Origin: Candidatus Magasanikiibacteriota bacterium
GTDB taxonomy: Bacteria; Patescibacteriota; Patescibacteriia; Magasanikbacterales; UBA922
Direction: 5' to 3'
Length of the DNA stretch: 64,000 nucleotides
NCBI GenBank assembly: GCA_903837125.1
Contig: CAILTG010000021.1
Span: 11,627-75,626, forward strand
In this document: in pieces, positions 7,937-60,104 of the stretch
Position numbering within the stretch: position 1 is the stretch's first letter
Layout of the letters: every line of letters begins with the position of its first letter
The notes under the pieces: model-generated
What the model was told of the DNA's origin: nothing
Databases searched by the model: none
The model's input: only the letters and a program-made list of their open reading frames with translations
Translations under genes and position numbers: made by a program

Positions 7937-9072
7937 ACTTTCTGAGTTAAATATATTTTTAGTGTTTTTTTAATAAAATCTTCTCCTGAATACCTTTTCA
8001 ATTCTTCTTTCGCCTTTTCTCGCAACTCCAGTCTAATATTTTCATCAGTCAAACCAGTATGTATAACTTCCGCCATTTGTTGATAATTTTCCGGATCAAA
8101 ATATAATGCCCCTTCACCTAATACTTCTGGTAAACAACTGGCATCAGATGATACCACTGGCACACCATACGTCATTGCTTCAAGCGGCGGCAAACCAAAA
8201 CCTTCATAAAGTGACGGAAAAACGTAAAGTGAAGCGTTTTGATATAGATTGGCGAGTTCTTCATCTGAAACAAAGTCAGTAAAAACTAAATTGTGATCTT
8301 TCAATCTTTCAATCTTTAAATCTTTAAATAATTTCTCATAAAAGAAATTATTCTTTCCCACCAACACTAACTGATAATCCTCACCATACTTCTCACCAAA
8401 TATTTTCCACGCCCTTAACAATCCTTCCAAATTCTTATGAGGATATGCATTACCTACATAAAGAACATACGGCTTGTTAATTTGAAATTTGAAATTTGAA
8501 ATTTGAAATTTATTTGTATCTTGATTATTGATTATTTTTGTAAACGGTGCTTGATAAATAACCACCATTTTCTCCAACGGCACTCCCAAAGTTTGATGCA
8601 CATCCTGTTTAGTAAATTCACTCGTTACAATAATCTGTTTGGCCTTTTTTACCGCATGACGTAACACTAAACGATGAACCAAATCTTTAAACCAATAAAC
8701 AAATCGTCCGTGCGTACTCGCCTCTTGGCGAGGATAATGATACATTATTAAATCATGAATGGTAACCACGAATGGTTTATTATAAAACAATGGTACATTC
8801 CAATGTGGAAAATGCATTAAATCTACTTGCTCTTTTTCAATTATCTTCTTAAATTTAAACTGCTCTTGCCAACTATACCATGATATATTTGCTTCAATAA
8901 TCTTAAAGCTGTTCGGTAATTCTGCACTCTCCAATTCTTTTGCATTTCTTACAAAAATAAAGTATTCACTCTCTTTGTCTATTTCAGCCAAACCCAAAAC
9001 CAACTCCTGAACATACCTGCCCAAGCCTGCCTGTTTTGGTCCATACATCCGCGCATCTATACCAATTTTCAT
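7933..9072 (-). CDS. Glycosyltransferase family 4 (GT-B, 'group 1')
   Basis: C-terminal EGFGLPPLEAMTYGVPVVSSDASCLPEVLGEG motif. Overlaps the upstream gene by 4 nt. Contains an in-frame (AATTTGA)x4.7 repeat encoding KFQISNFKFQI. Confidence 0.85.
   Translation of the reverse strand: MKIGIDARMYGPKQAGLGRYVQELVLGLAEIDKESEYFIFVRNAKELESAELPNSFKIIEANISWYSWQEQFKFKKIIEKEQVDLMHFPHWNVPLFYNKPFVVTIHDLIMYHYPRQEASTHGRFVYWFKDLVHRLVLRHAVKKAKQIIVTSEFTKQDVHQTLGVPLEKMVVIYQAPFTKIINNQDTNKFQISNFKFQINKPYVLYVGNAYPHKNLEGLLRAWKIFGEKYGEDYQLVLVGKNNFFYEKLFKDLKIERLKDHNLVFTDFVSDEELANLYQNASLYVFPSLYEGFGLPPLEAMTYGVPVVSSDASCLPEVLGEGALYFDPENYQQMAEVIHTGLTDENIRLELREKAKEELKRYSGEDFIKKTLKIYLTQKV
8469..8503. repeat. Heptanucleotide tandem repeat (AATTTGA)x4 plus a degenerate unit, in frame inside the GT4 CDS
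   Basis: aatttga aatttga aatttga aatttga aatttat, read directly. Near-identical arrays occur at 27652-27688 (inside argS) and 60077-60104 (intergenic). Confidence 0.9.
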
Positions 9073-10163: not shown

Positions 10164-11432
10164 CTATACGCCTGAGTTAATAATTTTTATAAATTCCACT
10201 GCCAATTTCTCACACCCAAACTCCTCTATTCTCTTCTTTCCTCTCTCAACTAACACACCTCGCAACTTCTCATCTGACAATATTTTTTTAATTGCTTCGG
10301 CCAGTTCATCAACATTGTGTGGATTAATTAAATATCCAGCCTCACCAACCACTTCTGGTAATGATGAACGACTGGAAGTAATAACTGGTACACCACTGAC
10401 CATCGCCTCTAAAACTGGCAAACCAAAACCTTCATACAAACTTATAAAAACAAACAAACTACTCAACTTATACAAAGTTGGTTTATCTCTTTCGTCAACA
10501 TAACCAATATATCTAACACCTGATGTTTCTTTTATCAACTGCATTAATTTTTTATTCTTCCAACCTTTACCACCAGCAATTACAAGTTCATATTTCTGAG
10601 TTCTGAGTTCTGAGTTACAAAAAGCTTCTATTATTGTTTGAACATTTTTTCTAGGTTCAAGGGTTCCTAAATACAAAATGTACTTTTCTGGTAGACCATA
10701 CCTTTGTTTTACTTGATTTCTACTATCTGAGTTCTGAGTCATGATAAAAGGCAGCCCAGGCCTCAACACTTGCAATTTGCTTTCTGCTATCTGATATCTG
10801 TCTATCACATCGCGTTTAGTATTCTCCGATGGCGTAATTATTACATTCGCTCGCTGACATTGACGTTGCGGATTTAAAAACTTGTGCCACAATCTTTGTT
10901 TCCAAGTAAAACAATCCGGCAAAAATTCAAAAGACAAGTCATGAATGGTTTGAATGTGTCTAACATTTTTTGATAAATTTATAAAACTTAAATTTGGCGA
11001 AAACCAGGTATCAATTCCTCTGTCATTGCGAGGAAACCGATTCGCATCGGCTGACGAAGCAATCTCAGGCAACCTGTAATCTTTAGATAACGACGACGTG
11101 AGATTGCTTCGTCGTCGCGCGAGCTCCTCCTCGCAATGACATAATTTATCTAGTTTAATTATTCTAAGCCAAACTAACAAATTGAGTAATTTATTCGGCC
11201 ATCTAGTATACACATAATGCACATTTTCTTGCTTCCACTGCGGAATATTTTTTGAAACATCAGCCCAAGAATTATAAAACAAAAAATATTGGTTCGCATC
11301 AAGGCAATTATTCAGCTGTTTAAATCTGTCTAAATCAATGCCAAAAATAGTATTAAGCATTCCAAAAGTATACTCCCCAACGCCAGTACGATTTTTATCC
11401 ATTAAACAACGGATATCAACCCCAATATTCAT
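10164..11432 (-). CDS. Glycosyltransferase family 4 carrying in-frame repeat and palindromic-element insertions
   Basis: EGFGLPVLEAMVSGVPVITSSRSSLPEVVGEAGY motif. Contains (TCTGAGT)x3 at 10595-10615 and x2 at 10726-10739. Also contains the 121-bp GC-rich palindromic element at 11021-11141, translated in frame. Confidence 0.8.
   Translation of the reverse strand: MNIGVDIRCLMDKNRTGVGEYTFGMLNTIFGIDLDRFKQLNNCLDANQYFLFYNSWADVSKNIPQWKQENVHYVYTRWPNKLLNLLVWLRIIKLDKLCHCEEELARRRSNLTSSLSKDYRLPEIASSADANRFPRNDRGIDTWFSPNLSFINLSKNVRHIQTIHDLSFEFLPDCFTWKQRLWHKFLNPQRQCQRANVIITPSENTKRDVIDRYQIAESKLQVLRPGLPFIMTQNSDSRNQVKQRYGLPEKYILYLGTLEPRKNVQTIIEAFCNSELRTQKYELVIAGGKGWKNKKLMQLIKETSGVRYIGYVDERDKPTLYKLSSLFVFISLYEGFGLPVLEAMVSGVPVITSSRSSLPEVVGEAGYLINPHNVDELAEAIKKILSDEKLRGVLVERGKKRIEEFGCEKLAVEFIKIINSGV
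10595..10615. repeat. Heptanucleotide tandem repeat (TCTGAGT)x3 in frame in the GT4 CDS; a second copy (x2) lies at 10726-10739.
   Basis: tctgagttctgagttctgagt, read directly. Encodes NSELRTQ on the minus strand. Confidence 0.9.
11021..11141. repeat. GC-rich nested palindromic element (RPE-like) inserted in frame in the GT4 gene
   Basis: Outer 14-bp inverted repeat tgtcattgcgagga (11021-11034) / tcctcgcaatgaca (11128-11141). Inner 15-bp inverted repeat gacgaagcaatctca (11053-11067) / tgagattgcttcgtc (11098-11112). Locally GC-rich in an AT-rich gene. Translated as ...CHCEEELARRRSNLTSSLSKDYRLPEIASSADANRFPRNDRG... Confidence 0.8.
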
Positions 11433-14167: not shown

Positions 14168-14600
14168 TCTTATCTATTGTAGATGATCGCCTGCCGATGA
14201 GGCAGGAGGAAAGTCCGAACTCTATCCATTAATTTGGAAATGGTAGTGGGTAACACCCACCAGCACTTTAGAGATAAAGTGTTCGGGATAGCGCCACAGA
14301 GACAATACTACCCCGCAAAATGCGGGGGAAAGGTGAAAAGTGTATGGGGGTTTTGGTTCTAGATCAAAGCTACTATACTCCTCTAATAGTAATATTGGAG
14401 TGCGGCAAGCCCTACCTGGAGAAAGAGCAGCGCCCCGCAGTTTGCGGGGCGAAAAGTTAGCTCGTTAGAATCTATTGGCAACAATAGATCTAGATAAATG
14501 ATCGTCGCCCACAAATCACAACACCAATCGACACTAATTAGTGAAGATTAGTGAAAATAATAGTGGACACAAAATTCGGCTTATAACAATAGGTGAGACA
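14168..14600 (+). ncRNA. rnpB: RNase P RNA (bacterial type A), with a ~55-nt insertion containing ATTAGTG repeats near the 3' end
   Basis: P3 hairpin CCTGCC-GATGA-GGCAGG. CR-I GAGGAAAGTCCGAAC. P8/9 GGTAGTGGGTAACACCCACC. J11/12 CGCCACAGAGACAAT. P12 CCCCGCAAAATGCGGGGG. GGTGAAAAG. P18 ATCTATTG-GCAA-CAATAGAT followed by CTAGATAAATGA. CR-V ACAAAATTCGGCTTATAAC, whose TTCGGCTT pairs with AAGTCCGAA to form P4. P1/P2 5' tcttatctattgt pairs with 3' acaataggtgaga. Followed by an A/T hairpin terminator. Confidence 0.85.
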
Positions 14601-18602: not shown

Positions 18603-18682
18603 AAAAAAGATCAGAAGATCAGAAGATCGAAAGATCATTAAAATGCTTGATCTTATGATCTTCTGATCTTTTGATCTTTACA
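18603..18682. repeat. Palindromic array of 8-mer repeats (AAGATCAG x4, then mirror-image TGATCTTN x4) carrying 8 GATC sites; probable large terminator hairpin after the bactofilin gene.
   Basis: aagatcagaagatcagaagatcgaaagatcattaaaatgcttgatcttatgatcttctgatcttttgatcttt. The loop contains the TTAAAATGCTT motif. On the minus strand the stem is followed by a T-rich tract. Confidence 0.8.
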
Positions 18683-27381: not shown

Positions 27382-29070
27382 CTACATTTCTTCAACTGTT
27401 TCTATACCCAACAAATCTAACCCTTTTTCCATAGTTTCTTTAACCTTTTTTATTAATTGAAAACGAAAATTAAGAACAGTTTCCTCCGCCCCCAAAACTG
27501 GACAGGTTTGATAAAAATTATTAAAAGCTTGCGCTAAATCAAACAAATATCTAGCAATCTGTGAAGGGTCCTCGGAGTCTGTGGCTATTTTAATTGTCTC
27601 TTCAAACTTTAATAATTCTAACAAAAGTTTCTTTTCTACCGGCTCAACTGAATTTGAAATTTGAAATTTGAAATTTGAAATTTTTGATTTTTTCAATATG
27701 CTGTTGATGCGAGCTACAATATAAAGCAAATAAGGCCCACTACTACCCGTTAAAGAAATAGCTTCATTTACATCAAACACAATGTCATTTTCAGTGCCAG
27801 TTTTTAAAATAAAATATTTAACCGCGGCCACAGCTATTTTAGCAATTACTTTATCCTTATCTTTTATTTTACGAGCCAACATTACTTCGGCAATCTTTTT
27901 TTCAGCTTCGTCAAGCAGCCACTCAGCCAAAACTACATTTCCCGTACGCGAACTCATTTTACCTTCTTTTAAACTCACCCAACCATAAACCAAATGTTCC
28001 TCCCTACCTTTGCTTTCAGGCAGAGTGAATTCCAAGGCTTTAAAAATAACTTTAAAATATTCAGTCTGTTCTTTGGCCACGACATGTAAAATTCTAGCTG
28101 GATTATATTCTTTAAATTGCATTCGAGCCAAGGCCTGGTCTTTGGCTTCATAAGTTGGCAAGCCTTTGCTGTTGATAAACACTCGGTCGTGCAGACCATA
28201 TTTACTTCCTTCAAAAATGACCGCTCCTTCGCTTTTCTTAAAAATTCCACTCTTTATACCTTCTATAACAATTTTTTTACCTAATTCAAAAGTTTCTGAT
28301 TCAAAATACAAACGATCAAACTTTTTAATGCCTACTCTTTTATAAATATAATCAAAATAATCCAAACTCCATTTTCTGGTTTTTTTATACAACCCAACCA
28401 AAGATTTATCTTTACTATAAATCTTGGCATTCAAAGCTTCAATTTCTTTTTTTACCTGCTCGCTACTCTCAAAAGCTTTACCCCCATTAGCATACACCAC
28501 CCCCAAAAATTTTGCTCGTTCACTGGTGGTTTTTAATTTTGAAATTTCTGTCTGATAATTTGGAACCTGTAAAATTCCCCACAAACACTTGGCAATATGC
28601 ATACCCACATCTCCCTGATAATTTGCACGCACTACCCTATGACCTTGATTTTCAAACAATCTCACCATGCTCTCGCCAGTAGTCATGGTGCGTAAATGTC
28701 CAATATGCACCGGCTTGTGAGTATTAGGATGAGCAAACTCCACCATGATCTTTTCCTTTTTTTTGATTATTTTTTGTTTTTTTTCTGATAAAACAATTTT
28801 TGCTAATTCTTGTGCGTTCAAATAAAAATTTGCATACGGCCCGATTGCTTCAATTTTTTCTATCAATCCACCAGTTTCCAAGTTTTTTAATTTCTCAACA
28901 ATTTCTCTGGCACAATCCAGCGGACTTTTCTTCCATTCTTTTGCTAAACCAAAACAGGCAAATGCCAAATCACCCATTTCTGGATTTGGTGGAATCGTAA
29001 AATTTACCAGACCAGTAACTCCTGCTTTTTTTAATAATCTTTCTATTTCAATTTTTATTTGTTCCAACAT
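27382..29070 (-). CDS. argS: Arginyl-tRNA synthetase
   Basis: Class I HIGH motif AHPNTHKPVHIGHLR and a C-terminal DALR anticodon-binding domain. Contains the in-frame (AATTTGA)x4+ repeat at 27652-27688, encoding KISNFKFQISN in the linker before the DALR domain. Confidence 0.9.
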   Translation of the reverse strand: MLEQIKIEIERLLKKAGVTGLVNFTIPPNPEMGDLAFACFGLAKEWKKSPLDCAREIVEKLKNLETGGLIEKIEAIGPYANFYLNAQELAKIVLSEKKQKIIKKKEKIMVEFAHPNTHKPVHIGHLRTMTTGESMVRLFENQGHRVVRANYQGDVGMHIAKCLWGILQVPNYQTEISKLKTTSERAKFLGVVYANGGKAFESSEQVKKEIEALNAKIYSKDKSLVGLYKKTRKWSLDYFDYIYKRVGIKKFDRLYFESETFELGKKIVIEGIKSGIFKKSEGAVIFEGSKYGLHDRVFINSKGLPTYEAKDQALARMQFKEYNPARILHVVAKEQTEYFKVIFKALEFTLPESKGREEHLVYGWVSLKEGKMSSRTGNVVLAEWLLDEAEKKIAEVMLARKIKDKDKVIAKIAVAAVKYFILKTGTENDIVFDVNEAISLTGSSGPYLLYIVARINSILKKSKISNFKFQISNSVEPVEKKLLLELLKFEETIKIATDSEDPSQIARYLFDLAQAFNNFYQTCPVLGAEETVLNFRFQLIKKVKETMEKGLDLLGIETVEEM

Positions 29071-46387: not shown

Positions 46388-49300
46388 TTAGCCAACTAAT
46401 AAATTTATATGCTGTAGTTCTAAAGGCAAACCGCCAGCATTTATGACACTACCGCTAGCATTTCCTTCTGCGGAAATATTATTTATTGTTGCAAACATTT
46501 CTGGTACTTGTGCTTCAGATAAAATATCTGCCCGCAGTTCAACAATTACTCTTTGATCTTTATTTAAGACATAATTTAGATTATCTATTACTACATTACT
46601 ACCTGAAAGAGTTATTTGTGAACCAATAGGTTGTCCATCAATAAATAAATTTAAGCCAGAAATATTTTCAAATCCACTAATATTTAAACTTAAATTATTT
46701 ATTTTTACATCCTCAACTTTTGGTTCTAACTCAAATCTTCCTAAAACAATACCAATAGAACCCGTGGCCACACTTGAAATCTCTAAAGGTTGGCCAAGAT
46801 AGACATCTAAAGTCCCCAAATTAGTTGGCACTGTTAAACTAAGATGCTGCAATTCCAATGGCAAACCGCCAGCATTTATGACACTACCACTAGAATTACC
46901 TTCTGCAGAAATATTATTTACAGTCACAAACATTCCTGGTACCTGTGCTTCTGGTAAGATATCTGCCCGCAGTTCAACAATTACTCTTTGATCTTTATTT
47001 AAGACATAATTTAGATTATCTATTACTAGGCTACTCCCTGATAGAAATACTTGTGAACCAATAGGTTGTCCATCAATAAATAAATTTAAGCCAGAAATAT
47101 TTTCAAATCCAGTAATATTTAAACTTAAATTATTTATTTTAATATCTTCAACTTTTGCCTCAAGTTCAAATCTTCCTAATACAACAGCGTTAGAACCAGC
47201 AGCCGTACTTGAAACCGTTAAAGGTTGACCAAGGTAAATATCTAAAGTGCCACTACTGCTCACTGGCGCTAAGGCATTATATTCCGCTGTAATCTCGGCA
47301 TCAGTTAAAACTCGCTTATAAAATTTAATTTCATCCATAGAACCAGAGAAGAAGTAATTATTATTATAACTTCCCACCAGAAGTGGAGAATTATCATTCT
47401 TTACCGCACCGGTTTGTGGCTGTTCACCAACTTTTACACCATTGGCATAAACGCGAATCATACTACCATCATAAGTAAGGACAATGTGATTCCATTGGGA
47501 CGTTTTAATTACGTTAGGTGTGTCAAAAACCACGCGAACATCAGACGCGTTGGTGATGCCGGTACGTAAACTGCCGTCATTGGAAATAGTTAATTCATAG
47601 TTAAGCTCTTTGGTAGCAACTACAGCATATTGATTGGAGAAAGATTCCGGCTTGATCCAAGCTTCCAAGGTTAAGGCTTGACCTGGCTCAAGATATTCAG
47701 AATCATTGGCAGTAATTAAATCATTTGTGCCGTCAAATTGCAGAGCAGTACCAGAAATGCCAAGAACATTCGCAATAGGACATTGATCTCCCGAACATCC
47801 TAGAGGAAATAAAGAAGCTGTATCAAAAAACTTGGTTGAATTAGCCGGCTCATTTAATTTATACTCAAAACTATTAATATCAATTGGAACTGGCTTAGAA
47901 TTATTATATTCTGTAGCAATTTCTTCATCTGTCAAAACACGTTTATAAAATTTAATTTCATCTATTGTGCCAAAGAATGGATAATTGCTATTGTAATTAC
48001 CAACTAATAGAGGCGTATTATCATTTTTTATAGCACCAGTCTGCACTTCCTCACCAACTTTTACGCCATTGACATAAGCCCGGACCATACTGCCATCATA
48101 AGTAAGCACAATGTGATTCCATTGGGACAACGTAACTACATTAGGAGTATCAAAAACTACCCGAGTATCAGCCGCATTGACAATACCTGTACGCAAACTA
48201 CCATCATTAGAAATAGTCAATTCATAATTAAGTCCCTTGCTAGCAACCACAGCATAATGATTAGAACTTGCATAAGGTTTGACCCAAGTTTCCAAAGTTA
48301 GGGCTTGACCCGGTTCAAGATATTCAGAATCATTGGCAGAAATCAGATCATTTGTGCCGTCAAATTGTAATGCAGTACCAGAAATACCAGGAACATTCGC
48401 AGTAGGGCATTGATCTCCCAAACAAGCTAAAGGAAAAATTGAGGCCTGATCAAAAAATTGATTTGATCCAACCGGTTCATTTAATTTATAGATCAATTCA
48501 TTATCAACAACTGGAACCGGTTTCAAATTATTATATTCCGCCATAATCTCAGCACCAGTTAAGGTTTGCTTATAAAATTTAATTTCATCAATTGTGCCAA
48601 AGAATGGATACCTATCATCACCTAAACTACCAACTAACAATGGGGTACTATCATTCTTTATGGCACCGGTCTGTGGCTGTTCACCTACTTTTACACCATT
48701 GACATAAGCGCGAATCATACTACCATCATAAGTAAGTGCTAGATGATTCCATTGGTACATTTTTACTACATTATATGCATCAACAGCCGCACGTATGTTG
48801 GAGGCATTGGTGATACCCGCACGCAAACTACCATCATTAGTAATAGATATTTCATAATTAAACCCTTTAGTAATGACCACGGAATAATAATTGGAACTGG
48901 GCTGAGGTTTAATCCAGGTTTCCAAAGTAATTTGGTCTGTTGCTGAAATAATTTCGTTGTTATTAATATAGGTAAAATTATTTACTCCATTGAATTGTAA
49001 AGCTTTCCCAGAAATACCTATTACACCTGCCTCTGGACAATAACTAGCGCCACAACCCATCACTAAACCAGAAACATTATCAACAAAACTAGTGCTACCA
49101 GATTGCTCTTCGAAACTATAAGCTAAATTAATAACACTTGGAGGAACAACTTTTGAAACATTTACCGGTCCCAACCAATCTCCACTACTAGTTAAATTTC
49201 CATCATTATCAACTACTACGACAAGATAATAATATATTCCAGAAGTAACATTGTCCGTATAAGAAACCATAGCCATATTTGTGGAAGTGTTGATTGGTGA

Positions 49301-51568: not shown

Positions 51569-54500
51569 TTATTTATCATCAAAATTAACTAAATTACTAT
51601 TATATGTATTATACGACGTAATTCCTTTAACAATACTAACAATTGGCACGAGTGGAATATGAACAGCCGACTCAAACCCACTAAGACCTAGATGCCAATA
51701 AGGTGAACCAGCTGCACTAGTTGGATGAAAACCTATATGAGCTCTGAGTCCACCACTTACTTTTTCAAGAATACTTAAGTCAGGTTTAGACCCGGCATTT
51801 ACCTTTAAAAGAGTATTTTCTGTTTCAACCAATTTTATTTGTTTAGCAGGTAGCAATTTGGACACAACACTGGTAGCTTTAAAACCAGCGAAAACGTCAA
51901 CAACATCATAACCAACATTTAAACTAGTATTTAACACAGAACCTTTTTCAGTTGTAGCATTAATAGCTTCATGAGCAGGATTGAAGGTGTAGTCCACGGC
52001 TTCTTCTTTCTCGTCAAAAATACTATTCCACATATTAACAACACCACCAGACAGTTGTGTGGTGCCTGCAACAATATTATTAGCACCCAACACACCCATA
52101 CCCACGCCACCGGCCACGGCCAGAGGTGCACCTAGCCCGCCGGTCGCGACGGTACCACCTGTAGCTAAAGTAACACCACCAGCTACTTCCACAGCTCCAA
52201 ACACAGTATTCAACCCACCCAATACAGTTTGTTTTGTTCCTTCCCACAACAAATCCCAATTTATCTCTCCACTCGGATCCGTATACTTCAATGGATTATT
52301 CTTTACATAAATATATTCATTGTAACCCAACACTCCATCGCCACGATGAATAATTGGATCTTTTGACAAGAATCTGCCAAGCAAAGGATTGTAATAGCGG
52401 GCGTTGTAATAATATAATTCTGATTCAGCATCAAATTCCTGACCAGTGTATAAATAATTACTGGTATTACTATCTTCTCCTAGTTCGCTGGCAATACTGC
52501 CAAATGGGTCATAGCTATACTGGTGCACAATTGCCCCAGTGTTGTTTGTAACCAGCACAGTGGAACCAAGAATATCTTGATTAAGATATTGCAAATTATT
52601 ATTTTGATCTATTTCTGCAATTGAGCCTAGGCCATTTACCATTGTTTTTAGAATTGTTCCGGTGGCACTTACTTCATTCAAAACAGTTAAGCCATTATTA
52701 AGATAATAAGTATTATCGCCATTTACAGCTTTCTTCACACGGTTGCCAAAATCATCATAAACAAATGCCGAAACATTATTTGTTTGATTTGGAATTTGAT
52801 AAGTAATTGAATTTAATTTATTTTCCGAATTCCAATTATAATTTACAGTTTTGGTATTTTTACCAAGCAAACTATAATTTTCTTGGATAATATTGCCATT
52901 ATTATCAGTGGCATAAGCAACATTCAATTTATTATTAAGAGACAATCCAAAAATTTCGTTGGTGTTGGCATTATAATTATAAGTAGTGGTGCCAAAGGCA
53001 GTATGGTAATTTGTTCTGTTACCCCAAGCATCATAATTATAAGCTAAATTTTGACCGGTTGCTAAATGATTATAATCAGCATTAGTAACTTGGCTTATTG
53101 AATCATAAGCATAATTAACAGTGGAAGAAGTTAATTGTCCATCAGTCAATTTAAGTTCCACCATTTGCGTTCTGTTTGATTCCTTATCATAAGTATAATC
53201 CTGTCTAAATAAAATATTAACGCCTAATTTTGTTTCTACACTCTTTGGCCTTTGCGATTCATCATAAGTATAAGTGGTAACTGTGCCATTGCCATAAGTA
53301 ACAGTTAATGGTTTGCCAAATGAAGTGTAAGTATAAACTGCCAAATTATTGGAAGCATAAACTACATTATCAAGTAGCGCGCGATTATTATAATTATAAT
53401 TTATTTTCTTATTCGCGGCATCGGTAATAGATTTTAATCCCGAGTCAACAAAATATTCTCTACCAACATTAAAAGTACCAGCCAAACCAATAATTGTTTT
53501 GGCTTCATTAGTGTTTCTATTCAAAACATCATAAGTATAAGCGGTAGTGCCGGACAAGTCACTTAAACTAAGCAAATTATTCCATTGATCATAACCATAA
53601 TTTATTTCACCTTCTGGTAAAGTTTTTTTGGTTAACCTTTCCAATTTGTCATAAGTATAGGAAACAGAATTACTATTGGCATTTAACTCACTGATTTTGT
53701 TGCTATTTTCATCATAACCAAAAGTAAAGACTTTATTGCCGGGTTCAATTCGCTTGTTTACTCTGTTTAACTGATCATATTCATAACTGGTAATTTTGCC
53801 AGCAATATTTTCTGTTAGACGGTTACTGTTGGCATCGTAAGTATAATTAATCACTGTATTTTGTGAATTAGTTTCGCTCGTCAAACGGTTTAATTTATCA
53901 TAAGCATAATTAGTCGTAAATCCACGTTTGTCTTTCAAGCTGATTTTATTATTCAACAAATCATAACCATAATCTTCATAATTGTTTAAAGAATCTATTA
54001 CTTTAATTAAGCGATTCAAAGAATCATACTGAAATTGAGTAATCTTGCTCTGTGAATCGGTGACGGTTAATTTATTTCCAGCCTTATCATAAGTATAGTG
54101 AGTATTATTATTTGCCGGATCAAATTCATCTGTCAAACGATTAAAAGCGTCATAAGTATAAGTCCAAATTCTGCTCATTTGATCTGTCTTACTTAAAACG
54201 TTACCAACTCCATCATACGTTTGTGAACTAAAATTACCTAAAGCATCAGTAATTTTTGTTTGTCTGTTCAAATTATCATACAAATAATTTATTACATGAG
54301 TATTACTAGTGCCATTGGAATTTTGACGATCAATAGTTTTAACTAAATTACCATTGGCATCATAAAAATACAGAGTATATTTATCATTGGCATCAATCTT
54401 TTTAATTACGCGGTTAGCGCCATCATAAACATAAGAAACTGAAGTTCCCAAGCTATTGCGATTGCTGACACTCAAAAATCCTCGAGGGTTTAATTCCCCG

Positions 54501-57500
54501 GTTTTGTTGCCATTGGCGTCATAAAAATATTTGGTGTGGCCATTCAAAGCGTCATCAGCCTGAAGCAAATGATCCATTAAATCATAAGAATAAATTGTAA
54601 CGTTGTTCTTGCCATCAACATCCTTAATTTTCCGATTAAAACCATCATACTCAAATTTATTGGCAAGATAATTTGAAGCGTCATAATATTTTCTGACTTC
54701 AATATTATTACCGCGCACATCATAAAAATAATCAGCCCGCGCTCCACCGGTGTTTGTTTCTTTTTTTACTTGTCCATTGTTGTAATATTCGTAAGTGATA
54801 GTTTTAACTGGGTCAGTCTTACTAATTATACGATTGGCAGAATCATAAACATATACAATTTCTCGATTTAGAGCATCCTGATCTTTTAATTTGTTCCCCA
54901 CCCAATCATACTGAGATAAAATTGCACTACCAGATTTGGTGACTGACAACAGACTAGCATTAATATCTTTATCATAAACATAAACAGTTGTTCTACCCAA
55001 TTCATCAGTAGCGCTCAGTTTGTGATCTTCTACATCATAAATAAATGTCTGATAAGTATTATCTGGATTAATAGCTTTTCTTAAATTTCCTTTAGTATCA
55101 TATTCAAAATTATACGCGTTACCTTTGGGGTCAGTATACCTAACGCGGTTACCATAAACATCATAAAGATAATTCTTTGTTACGGTTTGTGTCGTGGCAT
55201 CAGCTTGATTTACTATTAAGGATTCACTGGCAAGATAATTACCTGCTGCGTCATAAGTGTAATTAACAACTTGACCAGTCTTACTAGTGTATTTTTTCAA
55301 TGTGCCGTTGGTATTATATTCACGACGTTCAATATTACTTGTTGGATCAGTAAGAGTAACAAGATTTCCATAACTGTCATAAGCATAATTAGTTACTTTT
55401 GTTTCAACTGGTACAGTTGGAGTACTCGCCAAACTTACTGTTTCTGTCTTTCTAGTCATTCGGTTGAATGTGTCTTCATACACAAAAGTATTTACTGTGT
55501 GATAAGTAGTGTCTGGTAAAGTTTCCTTACTTAAGCGACGCTTGGTATCATATTCATAACTAATAATATTATTATTACCGTCAGTGTAAGAAATTGGCAT
55601 GCCCAAAGCACTATATGCCCACTTTTCAATGTTAGTTCCACGTTCTTGATAAATTTTTAATTCACCAGAGTTAAAACAAACCCGATCAGAATAAAAATTA
55701 TTTAAATCACGATAATTTTTAACCAAAGTACAGTGAGTTGAACCTACAATACCAGCATCTGCGACTTGGTAATCCAAAGTATAAACTTTTCTTTTCGCAC
55801 CAACAGCATCTACATTTGGATTGTATTCCCACTGTTCAGTAACCCGCCCATTACTATCAAAAGTGTTATACAAAATTGTACCACGAGGATCAGTATAGGT
55901 AAGCATTTTGCCATCGGCAGTATAAGTAAAATTTTTATCAATTGTCTCGGACACGCCATTATAAATCCGATTGCTCTGTACATGAACTAAATTACTATTT
56001 GCATCATATTCATAAGTAATTACAACTGGATTGGCAGAATTAACATTATCTTGTATACGAACAATCTTATCCCATTTAGCATCATCACTAGCTGAACCAT
56101 AACTAAATGCAATAGAACGACCAGAAGCATCTGTGATAGTTGTTAAAAGTGGCATTGAACGAACACTAGTGTAAGTTAAAGCTGTCACATTACCATTAGT
56201 ATCAACAATATTTTCCAAAACTCCCATATTTGCAGAAATAGCATTAACCGTGCCAGAAAATATATATTTAATTCCATCTAATTTCTGATAAACTAATCGA
56301 CTATTTTCCCAATATAAATTATCAAATTCTCCAACTGGCGGAGTATAGGTTGCTCCACCATCAGTAGTGGTATACGTTGCTACTGAAGCCCCACCTAAAT
56401 ATATTTCAATGTTTTTAGAAATAGGATCTTGATAATAATACATATTATAAGAATGCGCCCAACCATTACCCATTCTATTATTGCGATCAAATAATCTAGA
56501 ATTATAAGTTCTAGTAAAATTAATTGCTTCCCCTCTACCTGGCAATGAAAAATCAGTTTGCGTAAATTCAAAAGCACCAGTACGAATATTAACCGGATCA
56601 GCTGCAAAATTATAAGCTAATAAATCTGTTTTTTTACTCGTGTACGAGGCGTACTGTGCATCCTTGATTGGTTTGGCATCAACTGCTGTAATTTTCGTGC
56701 CAGCATAATATTCTTCAGAATCATAATAACTATCACTATCAAAATCTGGAGCTGGTGTAGAACCACCACCGCCACCACAAGTAGAATATCTTCTAATTTT
56801 AATATTATTTGAAGTATTAGAAATATTATTTGACTCATTAGATTCTGAAATATTATTACTTGGATCAAGAGTGATTGACACCTGATAATTTGCCTCATAA
56901 GGCATACTGCAATTGTCTTCAATATTTGCTGTCATTGTTTTGGTACCACTATACCCCGCAATTAAATTCCAACTAGACGGAGATTCATTCAACAAACCAT
57001 ATGTATTACCATTGCTAACATCTACTATCCCAGCACTATGAACCACACCATTGGAGGCAGTTGTTCCCAAATTTTCTATCGTATAACTATAAGCAATCTG
57101 ATTACCACCATACAGGGTGCCAGCGCTAGTAATGGTGCCATTGCTAGGTTTGAGATCTGGCAAAGGATTGAGATCATAAACAACACGAGAAAACACTCCA
57201 GTATAGTCATCATTTTCAGCTAATAAAGTTGTAGCGTTGGAATCATACAACTCAAGATAAGTATCAACACTTCCGCTAACTTGAACAGTCTGAATAGTTA
57301 CTACCGAACCAGAACGAGCAAAACTAATGCCATAGGCACCAACATCTGAAGTGTTTAAACCTCTGGCCTTAAAATAATAAACTTTAGAATTATAAGTAAA
57401 TTTAAACCAATCTTGATCGCTAGTTGTTAATTGCAAACTATTGTTAGTATAAGTTGTTGCAGTGCCAATATTATAAGCCTGTGAATAAGTATTATTTGGT

Positions 57501-59470
57501 TCAAGCGGATCAACTACAACGGCCGAAACTGTAATAGCTACAGAACCAGTATTATTATTTTCATATTGTTCTGTAATAGACCCTGGATAATCAGCAATAA
57601 AGCAAATATAGCGTGTTCCAGCGGTAGCATTGGTCGGTATAGTCAAAGAACCAGTATCTTGTGCTCCGGTTGCACCGGCAGCCAATGTTTCAACAGAATC
57701 AGTATCCAATCGTGTGTCACTAGTATCACAAGTGCTATCGGTAGAATAATAATAACCCATAGCTGAAGAACCGGCACTACCTGTACCGGAATTTTTGACT
57801 GTTACATAGCCAGAAATAGTTTCCCCAGGTGTGACTGTAGTTTTACTTAAACTTTTTGAATTGATTATAAGGTCTGGTAATTGAACCGCTGCTGTATAAG
57901 TAATTTGAATATATGGGCTAGAATCAGTGGTATATTCTTTGGACATGAAGACAAAAAGTCTGTCTGACCAAGAAGTCGGAGGAGTAGTACCCGAAGACCA
58001 AGCATCGGCATTCTCAACAATTAAAGCATAATAACCAGTCGGATTGTTATACCAATTTTTTACAGTATTCGTTATATACCAAGCGTACCAAGTTGATGCT
58101 GGTGTCATTGTAACAGTGGCTGCAGAATCATTGGCGGAAATATTACCTCTAATATTAGTATAACTATAAGTATTGGATAAACCAGACGGAATACTGGCAG
58201 GGTTCATAGGCGACAACAACTGTTTAGCTTTTATAGAAGCACTAGCAGCAGTTCCAGAACCATTCAAGTTGTAATACATATGAAGCATAGCTTCATCTAC
58301 TGTGCCCAAAGAAGTCAATTGAGGTAAATCAAAATACAACAATGCATGCCTTGTGTACCTACTAGTTCCACTATTATATCTGCCAAAAAAAATTCTTTGG
58401 TTATTAGCTGAATTAGAATCACAATTGCCTGCTGAATTACAGATATAGCCATCACTCTGACTTACTCCATTTAGTACTCTAAAATAAAAATTCTTAAGTG
58501 TACAAGTCATGTTGTTAGCAACCACCTCACTACAACCTTTATAAACAGGATCAATAGTTACCGGATAAACACGCTCTTTATTCAAAAGATATTTTCCTTC
58601 CATCTGAATACCAACTTTAAAAATTCGAGTTTTTCTATCAAATTTTACCAATTGTTTTGGTATGTACAAATTTGGATTTTCTATAAATTCTGAAGCACGA
58701 CCACTAGCATCAAAAGCAATTGGCACACTAATATCAATACGATTGCCTTTATTATCTTTGATATATAACCCTTTTTGAGTGATATCTCTGTCGCCAACAA
58801 TAGCAGTACCATCGGCAATATAGGCAGTATCATCTACGCCAAGCTGTATTTCTTCCCAAAAAATTAAATTTTCTTTCGCAGTAATATTTGTCGGCTTTTC
58901 TTTAATAATAATATTCTTCTGTCTAGTCTGTTCACGGTCAAAAAATTGTATATCTATCCCCTTGTAAACATCCTTCAAAAGAGAAACATTTTGATCATTT
59001 TCTATTTTTTGTTCAAGTTTTACTTGAGCAGGCTTTTCACTTATCCGATTACCATAATCCAATGAACCAGCAGAAATTGCTATACTATTATTTCTTTCAA
59101 AAAAATCTAAAGTATTATAACTATAACCAGACTTAACAGCATTACTTATTCTTGAATTCACCCTTTCATTAAACAAATTCCACCCCTTTGGTCTTAACTT
59201 TAAACTACCATCTGCAGTTTTTTCCACTTGCCTAGGATTTGCATAAATTCTCATTACCTTTTTCCCATTAGCCAATTCCACCTCATCTTTAAATTGATCA
59301 ACCACTTTAAACGCCGAATCCGGCACTGTTGTCTCATCAACAGTCCTAGATGGTGTTTCTCCAATTGCCTTTATTGGCACTGTTTCGGCTTTAACCAAGA
59401 AAGGCAAAACCAAGGCGATTAATGCCAATAAGATAACCCGCATTAATTTTACTTTTAGCATACTTCTCAT
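51569..59470 (-). CDS. RHS/YD-repeat polymorphic toxin (teneurin-like). Order: signal peptide, CARDB-like and pre-peptidase-C-terminal (PPC)-like domains, long YD-repeat shell, RHS repeat-associated core, then a variable ~285-aa C-terminal toxin domain with a glycine-zipper segment.
   Basis: Signal MRSMLKVKLMRVILLALIALVLPFLVKA. Dozens of YD repeats (YTYD.LGN, YEYD..GN, Y.YD..NRL). RHS core ...YNARYYNPLLGRFLSKDPI...NNPLKYTDPSGE. C-terminal domain GAVEVAGGVTLATGGTVATGGLGAPLAVAGGVGMGVLGANNIVAG (repeated GxxxG). Confidence 0.88.
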   Translation of the reverse strand: MRSMLKVKLMRVILLALIALVLPFLVKAETVPIKAIGETPSRTVDETTVPDSAFKVVDQFKDEVELANGKKVMRIYANPRQVEKTADGSLKLRPKGWNLFNERVNSRISNAVKSGYSYNTLDFFERNNSIAISAGSLDYGNRISEKPAQVKLEQKIENDQNVSLLKDVYKGIDIQFFDREQTRQKNIIIKEKPTNITAKENLIFWEEIQLGVDDTAYIADGTAIVGDRDITQKGLYIKDNKGNRIDISVPIAFDASGRASEFIENPNLYIPKQLVKFDRKTRIFKVGIQMEGKYLLNKERVYPVTIDPVYKGCSEVVANNMTCTLKNFYFRVLNGVSQSDGYICNSAGNCDSNSANNQRIFFGRYNSGTSRYTRHALLYFDLPQLTSLGTVDEAMLHMYYNLNGSGTAASASIKAKQLLSPMNPASIPSGLSNTYSYTNIRGNISANDSAATVTMTPASTWYAWYITNTVKNWYNNPTGYYALIVENADAWSSGTTPPTSWSDRLFVFMSKEYTTDSSPYIQITYTAAVQLPDLIINSKSLSKTTVTPGETISGYVTVKNSGTGSAGSSAMGYYYSTDSTCDTSDTRLDTDSVETLAAGATGAQDTGSLTIPTNATAGTRYICFIADYPGSITEQYENNNTGSVAITVSAVVVDPLEPNNTYSQAYNIGTATTYTNNSLQLTTSDQDWFKFTYNSKVYYFKARGLNTSDVGAYGISFARSGSVVTIQTVQVSGSVDTYLELYDSNATTLLAENDDYTGVFSRVVYDLNPLPDLKPSNGTITSAGTLYGGNQIAYSYTIENLGTTASNGVVHSAGIVDVSNGNTYGLLNESPSSWNLIAGYSGTKTMTANIEDNCSMPYEANYQVSITLDPSNNISESNESNNISNTSNNIKIRRYSTCGGGGGSTPAPDFDSDSYYDSEEYYAGTKITAVDAKPIKDAQYASYTSKKTDLLAYNFAADPVNIRTGAFEFTQTDFSLPGRGEAINFTRTYNSRLFDRNNRMGNGWAHSYNMYYYQDPISKNIEIYLGGASVATYTTTDGGATYTPPVGEFDNLYWENSRLVYQKLDGIKYIFSGTVNAISANMGVLENIVDTNGNVTALTYTSVRSMPLLTTITDASGRSIAFSYGSASDDAKWDKIVRIQDNVNSANPVVITYEYDANSNLVHVQSNRIYNGVSETIDKNFTYTADGKMLTYTDPRGTILYNTFDSNGRVTEQWEYNPNVDAVGAKRKVYTLDYQVADAGIVGSTHCTLVKNYRDLNNFYSDRVCFNSGELKIYQERGTNIEKWAYSALGMPISYTDGNNNIISYEYDTKRRLSKETLPDTTYHTVNTFVYEDTFNRMTRKTETVSLASTPTVPVETKVTNYAYDSYGNLVTLTDPTSNIERREYNTNGTLKKYTSKTGQVVNYTYDAAGNYLASESLIVNQADATTQTVTKNYLYDVYGNRVRYTDPKGNAYNFEYDTKGNLRKAINPDNTYQTFIYDVEDHKLSATDELGRTTVYVYDKDINASLLSVTKSGSAILSQYDWVGNKLKDQDALNREIVYVYDSANRIISKTDPVKTITYEYYNNGQVKKETNTGGARADYFYDVRGNNIEVRKYYDASNYLANKFEYDGFNRKIKDVDGKNNVTIYSYDLMDHLLQADDALNGHTKYFYDANGNKTGELNPRGFLSVSNRNSLGTSVSYVYDGANRVIKKIDANDKYTLYFYDANGNLVKTIDRQNSNGTSNTHVINYLYDNLNRQTKITDALGNFSSQTYDGVGNVLSKTDQMSRIWTYTYDAFNRLTDEFDPANNNTHYTYDKAGNKLTVTDSQSKITQFQYDSLNRLIKVIDSLNNYEDYGYDLLNNKISLKDKRGFTTNYAYDKLNRLTSETNSQNTVINYTYDANSNRLTENIAGKITSYEYDQLNRVNKRIEPGNKVFTFGYDENSNKISELNANSNSVSYTYDKLERLTKKTLPEGEINYGYDQWNNLLSLSDLSGTTAYTYDVLNRNTNEAKTIIGLAGTFNVGREYFVDSGLKSITDAANKKINYNYNNRALLDNVVYASNNLAVYTYTSFGKPLTVTYGNGTVTTYTYDESQRPKSVETKLGVNILFRQDYTYDKESNRTQMVELKLTDGQLTSSTVNYAYDSISQVTNADYNHLATGQNLAYNYDAWGNRTNYHTAFGTTTYNYNANTNEIFGLSLNNKLNVAYATDNNGNIIQENYSLLGKNTKTVNYNWNSENKLNSITYQIPNQTNNVSAFVYDDFGNRVKKAVNGDNTYYLNNGLTVLNEVSATGTILKTMVNGLGSIAEIDQNNNLQYLNQDILGSTVLVTNNTGAIVHQYSYDPFGSIASELGEDSNTSNYLYTGQEFDAESELYYYNARYYNPLLGRFLSKDPIIHRGDGVLGYNEYIYVKNNPLKYTDPSGEINWDLLWEGTKQTVLGGLNTVFGAVEVAGGVTLATGGTVATGGLGAPLAVAGGVGMGVLGANNIVAGTTQLSGGVVNMWNSIFDEKEEAVDYTFNPAHEAINATTEKGSVLNTSLNVGYDVVDVFAGFKATSVVSKLLPAKQIKLVETENTLLKVNAGSKPDLSILEKVSGGLRAHIGFHPTSAAGSPYWHLGLSGFESAVHIPLVPIVSIVKGITSYNTYNSNLVNFDDK

Positions 59471-59681: not shown

Positions 59682-60068
59682 TTAATCCACCGGGATCACA
59701 TATTTCCTCAGCACAAACTTATCCGGCATTCTTTCCACATATATACTAATTTGTTCAAACATAATCGGCGTGATTCCAATATCTATATTATTCTCAAAAC
59801 AATAACTTTGGCAAGCTTTAAAAAACTTCTTCATTTTTTCTTCATCCACAGCTCGTTCGGCACTGCCCTCGCCATAACTTCTGGTTTTTACTTCTATAAA
59901 CGATAATTTTTTTAATTTATCATAATTATCATAATGGCTGGCAATAATATCCACCTCACCTTGAGGTATAGAATAATTACGCTTAACAATTTCATAACCA
60001 GCTTTAATTAAAAAAAGTGAGGCCTGCTCCTCACCCCACTGTCCCAATTTTTGCTTAGCGGTCTGCAT
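59682..60068 (-). CDS. yraN: YraN-family (UPF0102) endonuclease-like protein
   Basis: LGQWGEEQASLFLIKAGYEIVKRNYS...GEVDIIASH.......FIEVKTR matches the YraN family. Confidence 0.65.
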   Translation of the reverse strand: MQTAKQKLGQWGEEQASLFLIKAGYEIVKRNYSIPQGEVDIIASHYDNYDKLKKLSFIEVKTRSYGEGSAERAVDEEKMKKFFKACQSYCFENNIDIGITPIMFEQISIYVERMPDKFVLRKYVIPVD

Positions 60069-60076
60069 AAATTACA

Positions 60077-60104
60077 AATTTGAAATTTTCAATTTGAAAT
60101 TTAA
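60077..60104. repeat. Intergenic copy of the AATTTGA heptamer repeat in a partly inverted arrangement
   Basis: aaatttgaaattttcaatttgaaattta, immediately upstream of the yraN start. Confidence 0.8.

Follow-up and report, generated by a model that had tools for sequence, protein, structure and literature searches.

A 64,000-nucleotide stretch of contig CAILTG010000021.1 from a Candidatus Magasanikiibacteriota bacterium, analyzed here in its whole length and called the window, carries the same heptanucleotide tandem array, (AATTTGA)n, inside two genes. One encodes a GT4-family glycosyltransferase (GT4), and the other encodes arginyl-tRNA synthetase (ArgS), the enzyme that charges tRNA-Arg and is presumably essential. 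The explanation that we favor, with a probability of roughly 0.55, is that the arrays are short heptanucleotide microsatellites lying in weakly constrained protein segments, that they are neither insertions nor switches, and that they are locked in frame with the encoded peptide as a passenger. The original prediction, made from the sequence alone, had taken the arrays for inserted repeats that could act as phase-variation loci in the glycosyltransferase.

Identical arrays in two unrelated genes

Direct reading and Tandem Repeats Finder place a perfect array of 4.7 AATTTGA units, exactly 33 nt long, at positions 8479–8511 of the window and a second perfect array, again of 4.7 units and 33 nt, at 27651–27683. 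Both have the sequence AATTTGAAATTTGAAATTTGAAATTTGAAATTT, share the phase, and agree at 33 of 33 nt. The site at 60077–60104 is a degenerate match to the array, with two to three mismatches per 21 nt, which gives the 64 kb two perfect copies and one degenerate copy. The arrays of the original prediction are thus real and two of them are perfect, but the first had been placed about 10 nt off (8469–8503) and the third is only degenerate; the argS array, predicted at 27652–27688, is present within the bounds given above. A chance origin is excluded, because the array 21-mer has 12 matches with at most three mismatches in the window (G+C content ~34%) compared with 0.10 expected from dinucleotide-preserving shuffles. 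An assembly artefact, which had been named as an outcome that would undo the prediction, is unlikely because an independent ENA assembly of the window's own strain (L126, 100% identical over 680 nt) has the same 33-mer. All sequences compared in this work are metagenome consensus assemblies. By homolog searches, the organism falls within Candidatus Magasanikbacteria (Patescibacteria).

Both open reading frames (ORFs) are confirmed on the minus strand, and each array is translated in frame inside its gene, as had been proposed. The encoded peptides, NKFQISNFKFQIN at residues 188–198 of GT4 and KISNFKFQISN at residues 463–473 of ArgS, had been described as identical; because the two genes translate the 33-mer in different frames, they are instead cyclic permutations of SNFKFQI. 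The coding strand also includes A_AAU_UUC, which conforms to the X_XXY_YYZ pattern of slippery sites for ribosomal frameshifting. The peptide that the two proteins have in common results from a repeat in the DNA, given that the nucleotides are identical at all 33 positions, the frames differ, and the host proteins are unrelated. To this extent the prediction of spread at the DNA level rather than protein homology holds, although spread itself is seen only loosely, as one unit at two loci and as genomes with multiple matches. Shared low-complexity peptides of this kind (FQISNFKFQI) in unrelated proteins are no signal of homology.

The ArgS peptide lies inside the Pfam domain DALR_1 (residues 448–562), between the first two helices of the domain, and not in the linker before it where the prediction had put it. 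The GT4 peptide lies between the Pfam N-domain (residues 16–173) and C-domain (residues 196–356). AlphaFold (AF2) models of the two proteins, built on 83–88 homologs, are confident, the two mean predicted local distance difference test (pLDDT) scores being 93.6 and 94.1. In the ArgS model the peptide forms a coil (residues 462–476) flanked by helices 445–461 and 477–487. In the GT4 model the block with the lowest pLDDT (66, residues 181–190) overlaps the array peptide, and a short helix (residues 187–196) precedes the first strand of the C-domain (residues 202–206). As modeled, the arrays encode loosely constrained protein segments, a predicted coil in ArgS and a low-confidence linker in GT4. 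The GT4 linker, of ~22 residues, is filled for the most part by array 1 together with a mini-array of another unit (Table 1).

The peptides had also been called inserts, but the arrays are not insertions, because the length of each segment, the ArgS loop and the GT4 linker, is typical of its orthologs. Across 120 aligned homologs the ArgS loop hardly varies in length, and the GT4 linker segment has 43 residues compared with a mode of 41–42 among 120 orthologs. Insertion was considered and rejected on these alignments, and the extra length of an inserted mini mobile element similar to the Rickettsia palindromic elements (RPEs) is found at neither site. No flank similarity, terminal repeats, or target-site duplication is found around arrays 1 and 2, the flanks of which are unrelated coding sequence.

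Array sites in orthologs and other genomes

Comparison of orthologs shows that the ArgS loop and the GT4 linker are persistent array sites in Patescibacteria, at which the unit varies by lineage but position and approximate length persist. In the ArgS loop, the window and one ortholog (P0086) have (AAATTTC)4.7, the same unit read on the coding strand, and another ortholog (P0090) has a perfect (AAAGTCA)4.7, likewise of 33 nt. Others have (AAATTTW)n with 92% period-7 self-match (P0019), (GAAATTR)n with 85% period-7 self-match (P0024), (AAGGAGT)2.7 (P0065), or (AAAACTK)n (L261). The P0019 array differs from that of the window only at four C positions and looks like the result of AT-biased decay confined to those positions. 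Units AAATTAC and AAATTCC are also probable at array sites, as judged from the peptides of orthologs.

The GT4 site behaves similarly. Orthologs of ~74% and ~76% identity carry 33–34-nt arrays of the AATTTGA unit in the linker, one of them shifted in phase and position, and P0121 (~74% identical) has the same peptide at the same position. In ortholog segments that lack the peptide of the seed array, that of the window, a 7-residue periodicity is evident for GT4 (z = 8.4) and for ArgS family 1 (z = 4.8), and it is found again in the independent ArgS family around L103 (z = 11.7). The excess of identical residues at distance 7 is not approached at any other period; the sequences are related by descent, so these z-scores overstate significance, but the specificity for period 7 is plain. 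Alignment of orthologs had been expected to reveal lineage-specific insertions, and the same peptide at the same place in distant orthologs had been held to mean an ancient feature and to refute the prediction. Sister lineages do carry other units, but nothing is inserted, and some distant orthologs (P0086, L103, and P0121) share the peptide, which refutes the prediction in part on its own terms. The feature is not simply ancient either, as the sisters differ in unit.

Two further observations concern the GT4 gene and its surroundings. The linker of GT4 orthologs P0155, P0156, P0166, P0191, and P0211 has an 8-residue periodicity (QKHENTKT...), which would imply octanucleotide arrays at the GT4 site and a dominance of heptamers that is not exclusive. 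In a close relative (L123, positions 1969–2001), the DUF4012 gene adjoining the GT4 gene has a perfect 33-nt array of TTCAAGT. This unit differs by a single substitution from the seed unit and does not vary along the 4.7 units of the array, a pattern that suggests concerted evolution of a variant unit.

A DNA scan for (AATTTGA)3 with one genome per species, the genome-wide check that had been advised, yielded at least 120 loci, the in-gene copies always having TCAAATT as the sense strand. The matches listed span Patescibacteria, Acidobacteriota, Planctomycetota, Nitrospirota, Bacteroidota, Verrucomicrobiota, and others, at G+C contents of 24–64%. Around these matches, 0.92 Mb of DNA, selected for holding at least one seed array per locus, contains 182 perfect arrays of at least three units at period 7, of which 56 are of other units, compared with 2, 4, 7, 1, 0, 0, and 1 arrays at periods 5, 6, 8, 9, 10, 11, and 12, respectively. 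The same preference is apparent in 147 kb of Magasanikbacteria-like DNA, where nine arrays of at least three units have period 7 and where periods 5, 6, and 8–12 have zero or one array each (1, 0, 1, and 0 at periods 5, 6, 8, and 9). Period 4 has seven arrays in this DNA, a number not above that in shuffles, whereas block shuffles of the 147 kb contain no period-7 array of at least three units.

About 40% of the arrays among the matches listed lie inside long ORFs. Non-coding arrays are broader in length than coding ones, and the three longest (49–56 nt, all above 45 nt) are non-coding; among the listed matches in other genomes, array length takes all values from 21 to 39 nt and no phase is missing. 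The common orientation of the arrays is uninformative: with TGA present in each frame of the AATTTGA strand, TCAAATT is obligatory as the sense strand inside genes. Intergenic arrays located no more than 150 nt from the 5′ end of a gene, again among the matches listed, show a weak orientation preference (25 sense and 19 antisense). Orientation bias was therefore rejected as a sign of function, being trivial in genes and weak between them.

A Candidatus Kuenenia metagenome-assembled genome (MAG) has (AATTTGA)3.4 at two places (L030, 2955–2979, and L097, 4236–4260), each with inverted flanks, CCGCGATTGT...ACAAATCGCGG. Such a pair points to a small dispersed element, a hairpin whose loop holds the array.

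Origin of the arrays

In the explanation that we favor, neighboring 7-nt units would misalign during replication, either by slippage or by transient misalignment with short-patch copying, and arrays would in this way arise and stay homogeneous. The process is the one proposed for the general heptamer excess in bacteria. Within genes, the gain or loss of one or two units would shift the frame and be purged, and the proposed purging of such changes would both freeze the unit number and exclude long unstable tracts. A perfect array of at least three units is read in all frames, and the survivors would be those units that meet no stop codon in any frame; mutation pressure toward AT and the requirement for a tolerable peptide would then narrow the choice to a handful of units. 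Among the 146 heptamer necklaces with at most one G/C, 46 are stop-free, and the hydrophilic stop-free units are those observed (AAATTTC, AAAATTC, AAAAATC, AAATATC, and AAATTAC). AAATTTC, as the member of the permitted set that is built of an A-run and a T-run, could be a natural end point under AT pressure, with C standing between the T-run and the A-run because TAA or TGA must be avoided. Such a funnel of units would explain the recurrence of the array in unrelated genes and in distant ArgS lineages.

Several observations weigh against this explanation. An ArgS ortholog from a distant clade of the neighbor-joining tree (P0086, 55% identical) has the identical 33-mer at the same offset, and the genome-wide DNA scan found the same 33-mer in the homologous loop of the ArgS of a Patescibacteria MAG (L103, 27% identical). 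The array is alike at 33 of 33 nt between orthologs in which the codons of other identical residues match at only 51–59%, and the probability that all 11 array codons match, given identical residues, is ~1e-3. Conservation of this kind is not what neutral drift would predict, even when combined with concerted evolution. Coding arrays have a sharp mode at 33 nt (15 of 48 among the matches listed), and this mode is seen for other units too. Several genomes have multiple loci, up to six in one genome among the matches listed, and this finding, along with AATTTGA at two loci of one genome, suggests unit-specific amplification. Homogenization would also have to proceed in an essential gene without frameshifted intermediates. 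Finally, the evidence against AAATTTG as a special sequence, a candidate that was rejected, comes from viral contigs only and not from bacteria: the seed has 41 loci there compared with 30, 34, and 24 for three composition-matched heptamers and is not clearly commoner.

Two alternatives are retained because of the conservation at 33 of 33 nt, the 33-nt mode, and the genome-specific amplification of one unit: a selected motif and the spread of a preformed block. That the arrays represent a selected cis-acting nucleic acid motif, such as a factor binding site, an uptake or organization signal, or a translation-initiation element placed in tolerant protein segments, is unlikely, though it is the foremost of the alternatives. 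DNA uptake sequences, for example, sit inside Haemophilus coding regions. Selection on the nucleotides themselves would fit the contrast between the array and the remaining codons, the recurrence of the 33-mer, unchanged, at the ArgS loop of three lineages, the sharp mode of coding arrays, and the clustering of loci in particular genomes among the matches listed. It would also fit the placement of the third copy, which lies ~10–40 nt 5′ of the UPF0102 start codon (60066–60068) in a 69-nt spacer in which no Shine-Dalgarno sequence is evident; many arrays elsewhere also abut start codons, as do the TAACTGA repeats (PMC4679880). However, the unit differs by lineage at the same site, to the point that one lineage has a perfect 33-nt array of another unit, and intergenic copies are present in both orientations relative to neighboring genes. 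The P0019 array appears to be decaying, and the seed is not commoner than control heptamers in viral contigs.

Signals by which a motif might act were sought in the window itself. Scans for an intragenic or antisense promoter from the TTGAAA repeats, for a promoter at 60077–60104, and for terminators all gave results at the level of shuffles. Rfam has no family at the arrays, its matches in the window being only RNase P and two tRNAs, and RNA folding of the three transcribed arrays gave no significant structure (z = −0.5, +0.7, and −1.08, the last for 60077–60104).

A broader idea is that an active, unit-specific process or factor operates in Patescibacteria, and perhaps in other phyla, either a templated or conversion-based mechanism by which heptamer tracts of ~33 nt would be written and rewritten at tolerant sites or a conserved nucleic acid-binding factor that would have the tracts as its functional sites within genes. 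It would explain the presence of the 33-mer in one loop of ArgS proteins with no more than 27–55% identity, the 33-nt mode, and the genome-specific amplification of one unit, and we consider it somewhat less probable than a selected motif.

A shade more doubtful again is spread by copying, the DNA-level spread of the original prediction, in which a preformed block of ~33 nt would be written to new sites by ectopic gene conversion, by a templated polymerase or reverse transcriptase, or as a mini mobile element. The two loci of the window have identical 33-mers in the same phase, the AATTTGA unit is present at ArgS and GT4 loci in contigs of one sample pair (L001 and L124), several genomes have multiple loci, and a block of 33 nt, being a multiple of three, preserves the frame. 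Against this stand the unchanged length of both sites relative to orthologs, the absence of shared flanks, target-site duplications, or terminal repeats around the arrays, and the range of lengths (21–39 nt) and phases in other genomes. No candidate for the writing enzyme turned up, although the genes of the window were not screened for one.

Selection for the peptide is very improbable: FKFQISN might be useful in itself, for instance as an amphipathic strand-turn, and acquired convergently, and in the GT4 register K and I do fall on positions conserved as K and I in orthologs, ahead of the first strand of the C-domain, where the model predicts a short helix at the peptide, but the same DNA is translated in a different frame in each gene, the codons are identical down to the minor TTC, other lineages fill the segments with unrelated periodic peptides, and the hosts are cytosolic enzymes without a common function.

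Just as improbable is the suggestion of the original prediction that the arrays are contingency loci, in which slippage would alter the unit number and switch the glycosyltransferase on or off. It was correctly noted that a change in the number of heptamer units shifts the frame unless it occurs in multiples of three, GT4 genes for the synthesis of surface polysaccharides are classic cases of phase variation, and neuO provides a proven in-frame heptanucleotide switch (PMC13001214). If true, this suggestion would point to phase-variable surface glycans in an uncultured symbiont, but it finds no support in the data. Each array is only 4.7 units long, whereas neuO has 3–53 with a mode of 20 and is out of frame in 66% of genomes (PMC13001214). 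Unit number is equal in four independent assembly pairs (the window and L126; L123 and L260, which are 99.9% identical; L001 and L002; and L124 and L125), and GT4 orthologs of ~74% identity have the same array length, although rare variants would be invisible in consensus sequences. A metagenome search anchored on conserved flanks, with the gap between them left variable, in keeping with the proposal to look for heterogeneity in unit number, found one further contig with the length unchanged and no difference in unit number among consensus sequences. For another Patescibacteria species, three contigs of 21.7 kb that came from three samples are 99.97% identical and gap-free, but their only array is a small one of 18 nt. 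Out-of-frame alleles were not encountered, although homologs were not systematically screened and gene callers and clustering would hide frameshifts. The same array is also present in argS, presumably an essential gene, although the GT4 host could be dispensable.

The one short GT4 homolog that was examined (P0182 on L126, 228 residues) is an adapter-bearing assembly chimera. The idea that L126, at 96% protein identity, is a diverged strain was rejected, as the contig is chimeric, carries an adapter, and comes from the strain of the window itself. The match of this contig to the window ends exactly at an octanucleotide array (8296–8329) and the contig begins with an Illumina adapter; therefore, the octamer repeat seeded the chimera. 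Tracts of this type can thus seed assembly chimeras.

Known heptamer repeats and other features of the window

The arrays belong to the heptanucleotide class of long simple sequence repeats (SSRs) and not to the class of contingency loci: they are perfect 7-nt tandems beyond chance, period 7 is over-represented, and several loci share a unit. According to Mrazek (2007), as relayed in PMC4679880 and PMC4692102, heptanucleotide repeats are the most abundant class of long SSRs in most prokaryotic genomes, with polymerase slippage invoked, and units that are multiples of three are those reported in genes. Xanthomonas GGGAATC arrays peak at four units (PMC4692102). As with these long SSRs, the Xanthomonas arrays, and the cyanobacterial short tandemly repeated repetitive (STRR) heptamers, the arrays considered here are perfect 7-nt tandems, typically of ~4 units, with many loci per unit. 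They also share with the Mrazek-type heptamers the preference for period 7 over 5, 6, 8, and 9, a proposed origin by slippage, and a function that is unexplained for the class. Whereas the Mrazek-type cases are overwhelmingly intergenic, the present arrays lie in frame in conserved enzymes, occupy homologous positions even in deeply diverged lineages, and undergo turnover of their units.

TAACTGA repeats of 2–6 copies abut start codons in marine Beggiatoaceae, Cyanobacteria, and Bacteroidetes (MacGregor 2015, PMC4679880). There are points in common: one strand has stop codons in three frames, so in-gene copies are in "reverse," the third site of the window is 5′ of a start codon without a Shine-Dalgarno sequence (the two perfect arrays lie deep in genes), phyletic spread is patchy, and there is no known mechanism. 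The unit is a different one, however, and in-gene TAACTGA copies are located at protein termini or in hypothetical proteins rather than in internal segments of housekeeping enzymes; the TAACTGA report describes no recurrence at orthologous sites (PMC4679880). The arrays also resemble the (AAGACTC)n tract of neuO in Escherichia coli K1, in which heptamers are translated in frame and only multiples of three give full-length protein (PMC13001214), and the hmw promoters of Haemophilus influenzae likewise have heptanucleotide arrays, of 7-bp repeats (PMC8262952). The neuO and hmw tracts differ in that they have 3–53 units, often 13–24, and vary between and within strains as switches, compared with 4.7 units and no variation here (PMC13001214, PMC8262952).

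In the literature searched, neither the AATTTGA repeat nor its peptide appears in any bacterial context, and no paper ties heptanucleotide repeats to Patescibacteria. RPEs are insertions of ~100–150 bp with secondary structure, and DNA uptake sequences are non-repetitive motifs of very high density. Like both, the arrays are short DNA elements translated in frame in unrelated, even essential, proteins with a preference for tolerant segments; unlike both, they are tandem heptamers that add no length. What appears to be new is the recurrent in-frame occupation of homologous segments in conserved enzymes, with turnover of the unit. In Patescibacteria, variable segments of conserved, even essential, enzymes are encoded time and again by heptanucleotide microsatellites, an apparently undescribed route in which a DNA repeat process, not protein selection, writes the sequence of loops and linkers. 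Orthologous array sites allow the rates of unit turnover, homogenization, and decay to be measured, and the 7-nt excess of bacteria becomes testable because such measurements are possible. Among Patescibacteria, the Saccharibacteria are genetically tractable (PMC10633639).

Table 1. Repeat arrays of the window and the genes that hold them (positions in the 64,000-nt stretch)
Feature	Position	Strand	Description
Array 1	8479..8511	-	Sense (TCAAATT)x4.7, perfect 33 nt; encodes KFQISNFKFQI, residues 188-198, GT4 interdomain linker
Array 2	27651..27683	-	Same 33-mer, other frame; encodes KISNFKFQISN, residues 463-473, ArgS DALR coil
Degenerate AAATTTG-type array, ~4 units	60077..60104	-	69-nt spacer between methyltransferase gene and UPF0102 gene
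Host gene 1, GT4-family glycosyltransferase, 379 residues	7933..9072	-	ORF, homologs, Pfam
Host gene 2, arginyl-tRNA synthetase (ArgS), 562 residues	27382..29070	-	ORF, homologs, Pfam
Mini-array (AATAATC)x2.3	8521..8536	-	Same GT4 linker; encodes IINNQ
Octanucleotide array, sense (AAAGATTK)x4.2	8296..8329	-	GT4 host gene; encodes KDLKIERLKD
Perfect heptamer array, sense (AACTCAG)x3.3	10594..10616	-	In frame, encodes NSELRTQ, C-terminal domain of second GT4-like gene (10164..11432)

The peptide of the octanucleotide array falls in the second low-confidence segment of the GT4 model (residues 251–260, pLDDT 75). The second GT4-like gene has, in addition to its perfect heptamer array, an imperfect (TGCTATC)x4 array at 10778–10806 with 81% identity. 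Two opposed octamer arrays, (AAGATCAG)x3.9 and (TTGATCTT)x4.1, lie 9 nt apart between genes at 18607–18679, with GATC in every unit; judged from the sequence, the two together might fold into a ~31-bp hairpin or serve as a symmetric protein-binding site. A tandem duplication of 435 nt (1.9 copies, 87% identical) occupies 46409–47248. At 51569–59470 is an ORF of 2633 residues that is rich in YD/RHS-type repeats, as judged by eye from the translation, and the product looks like a secreted toxin-like protein. In the regions inspected, the minus strand carries all ORFs of more than ~100 residues, and GC skew is negative throughout the window. A bacterial class A RNase P RNA (173 bits) is encoded on the plus strand at 14171–14599.

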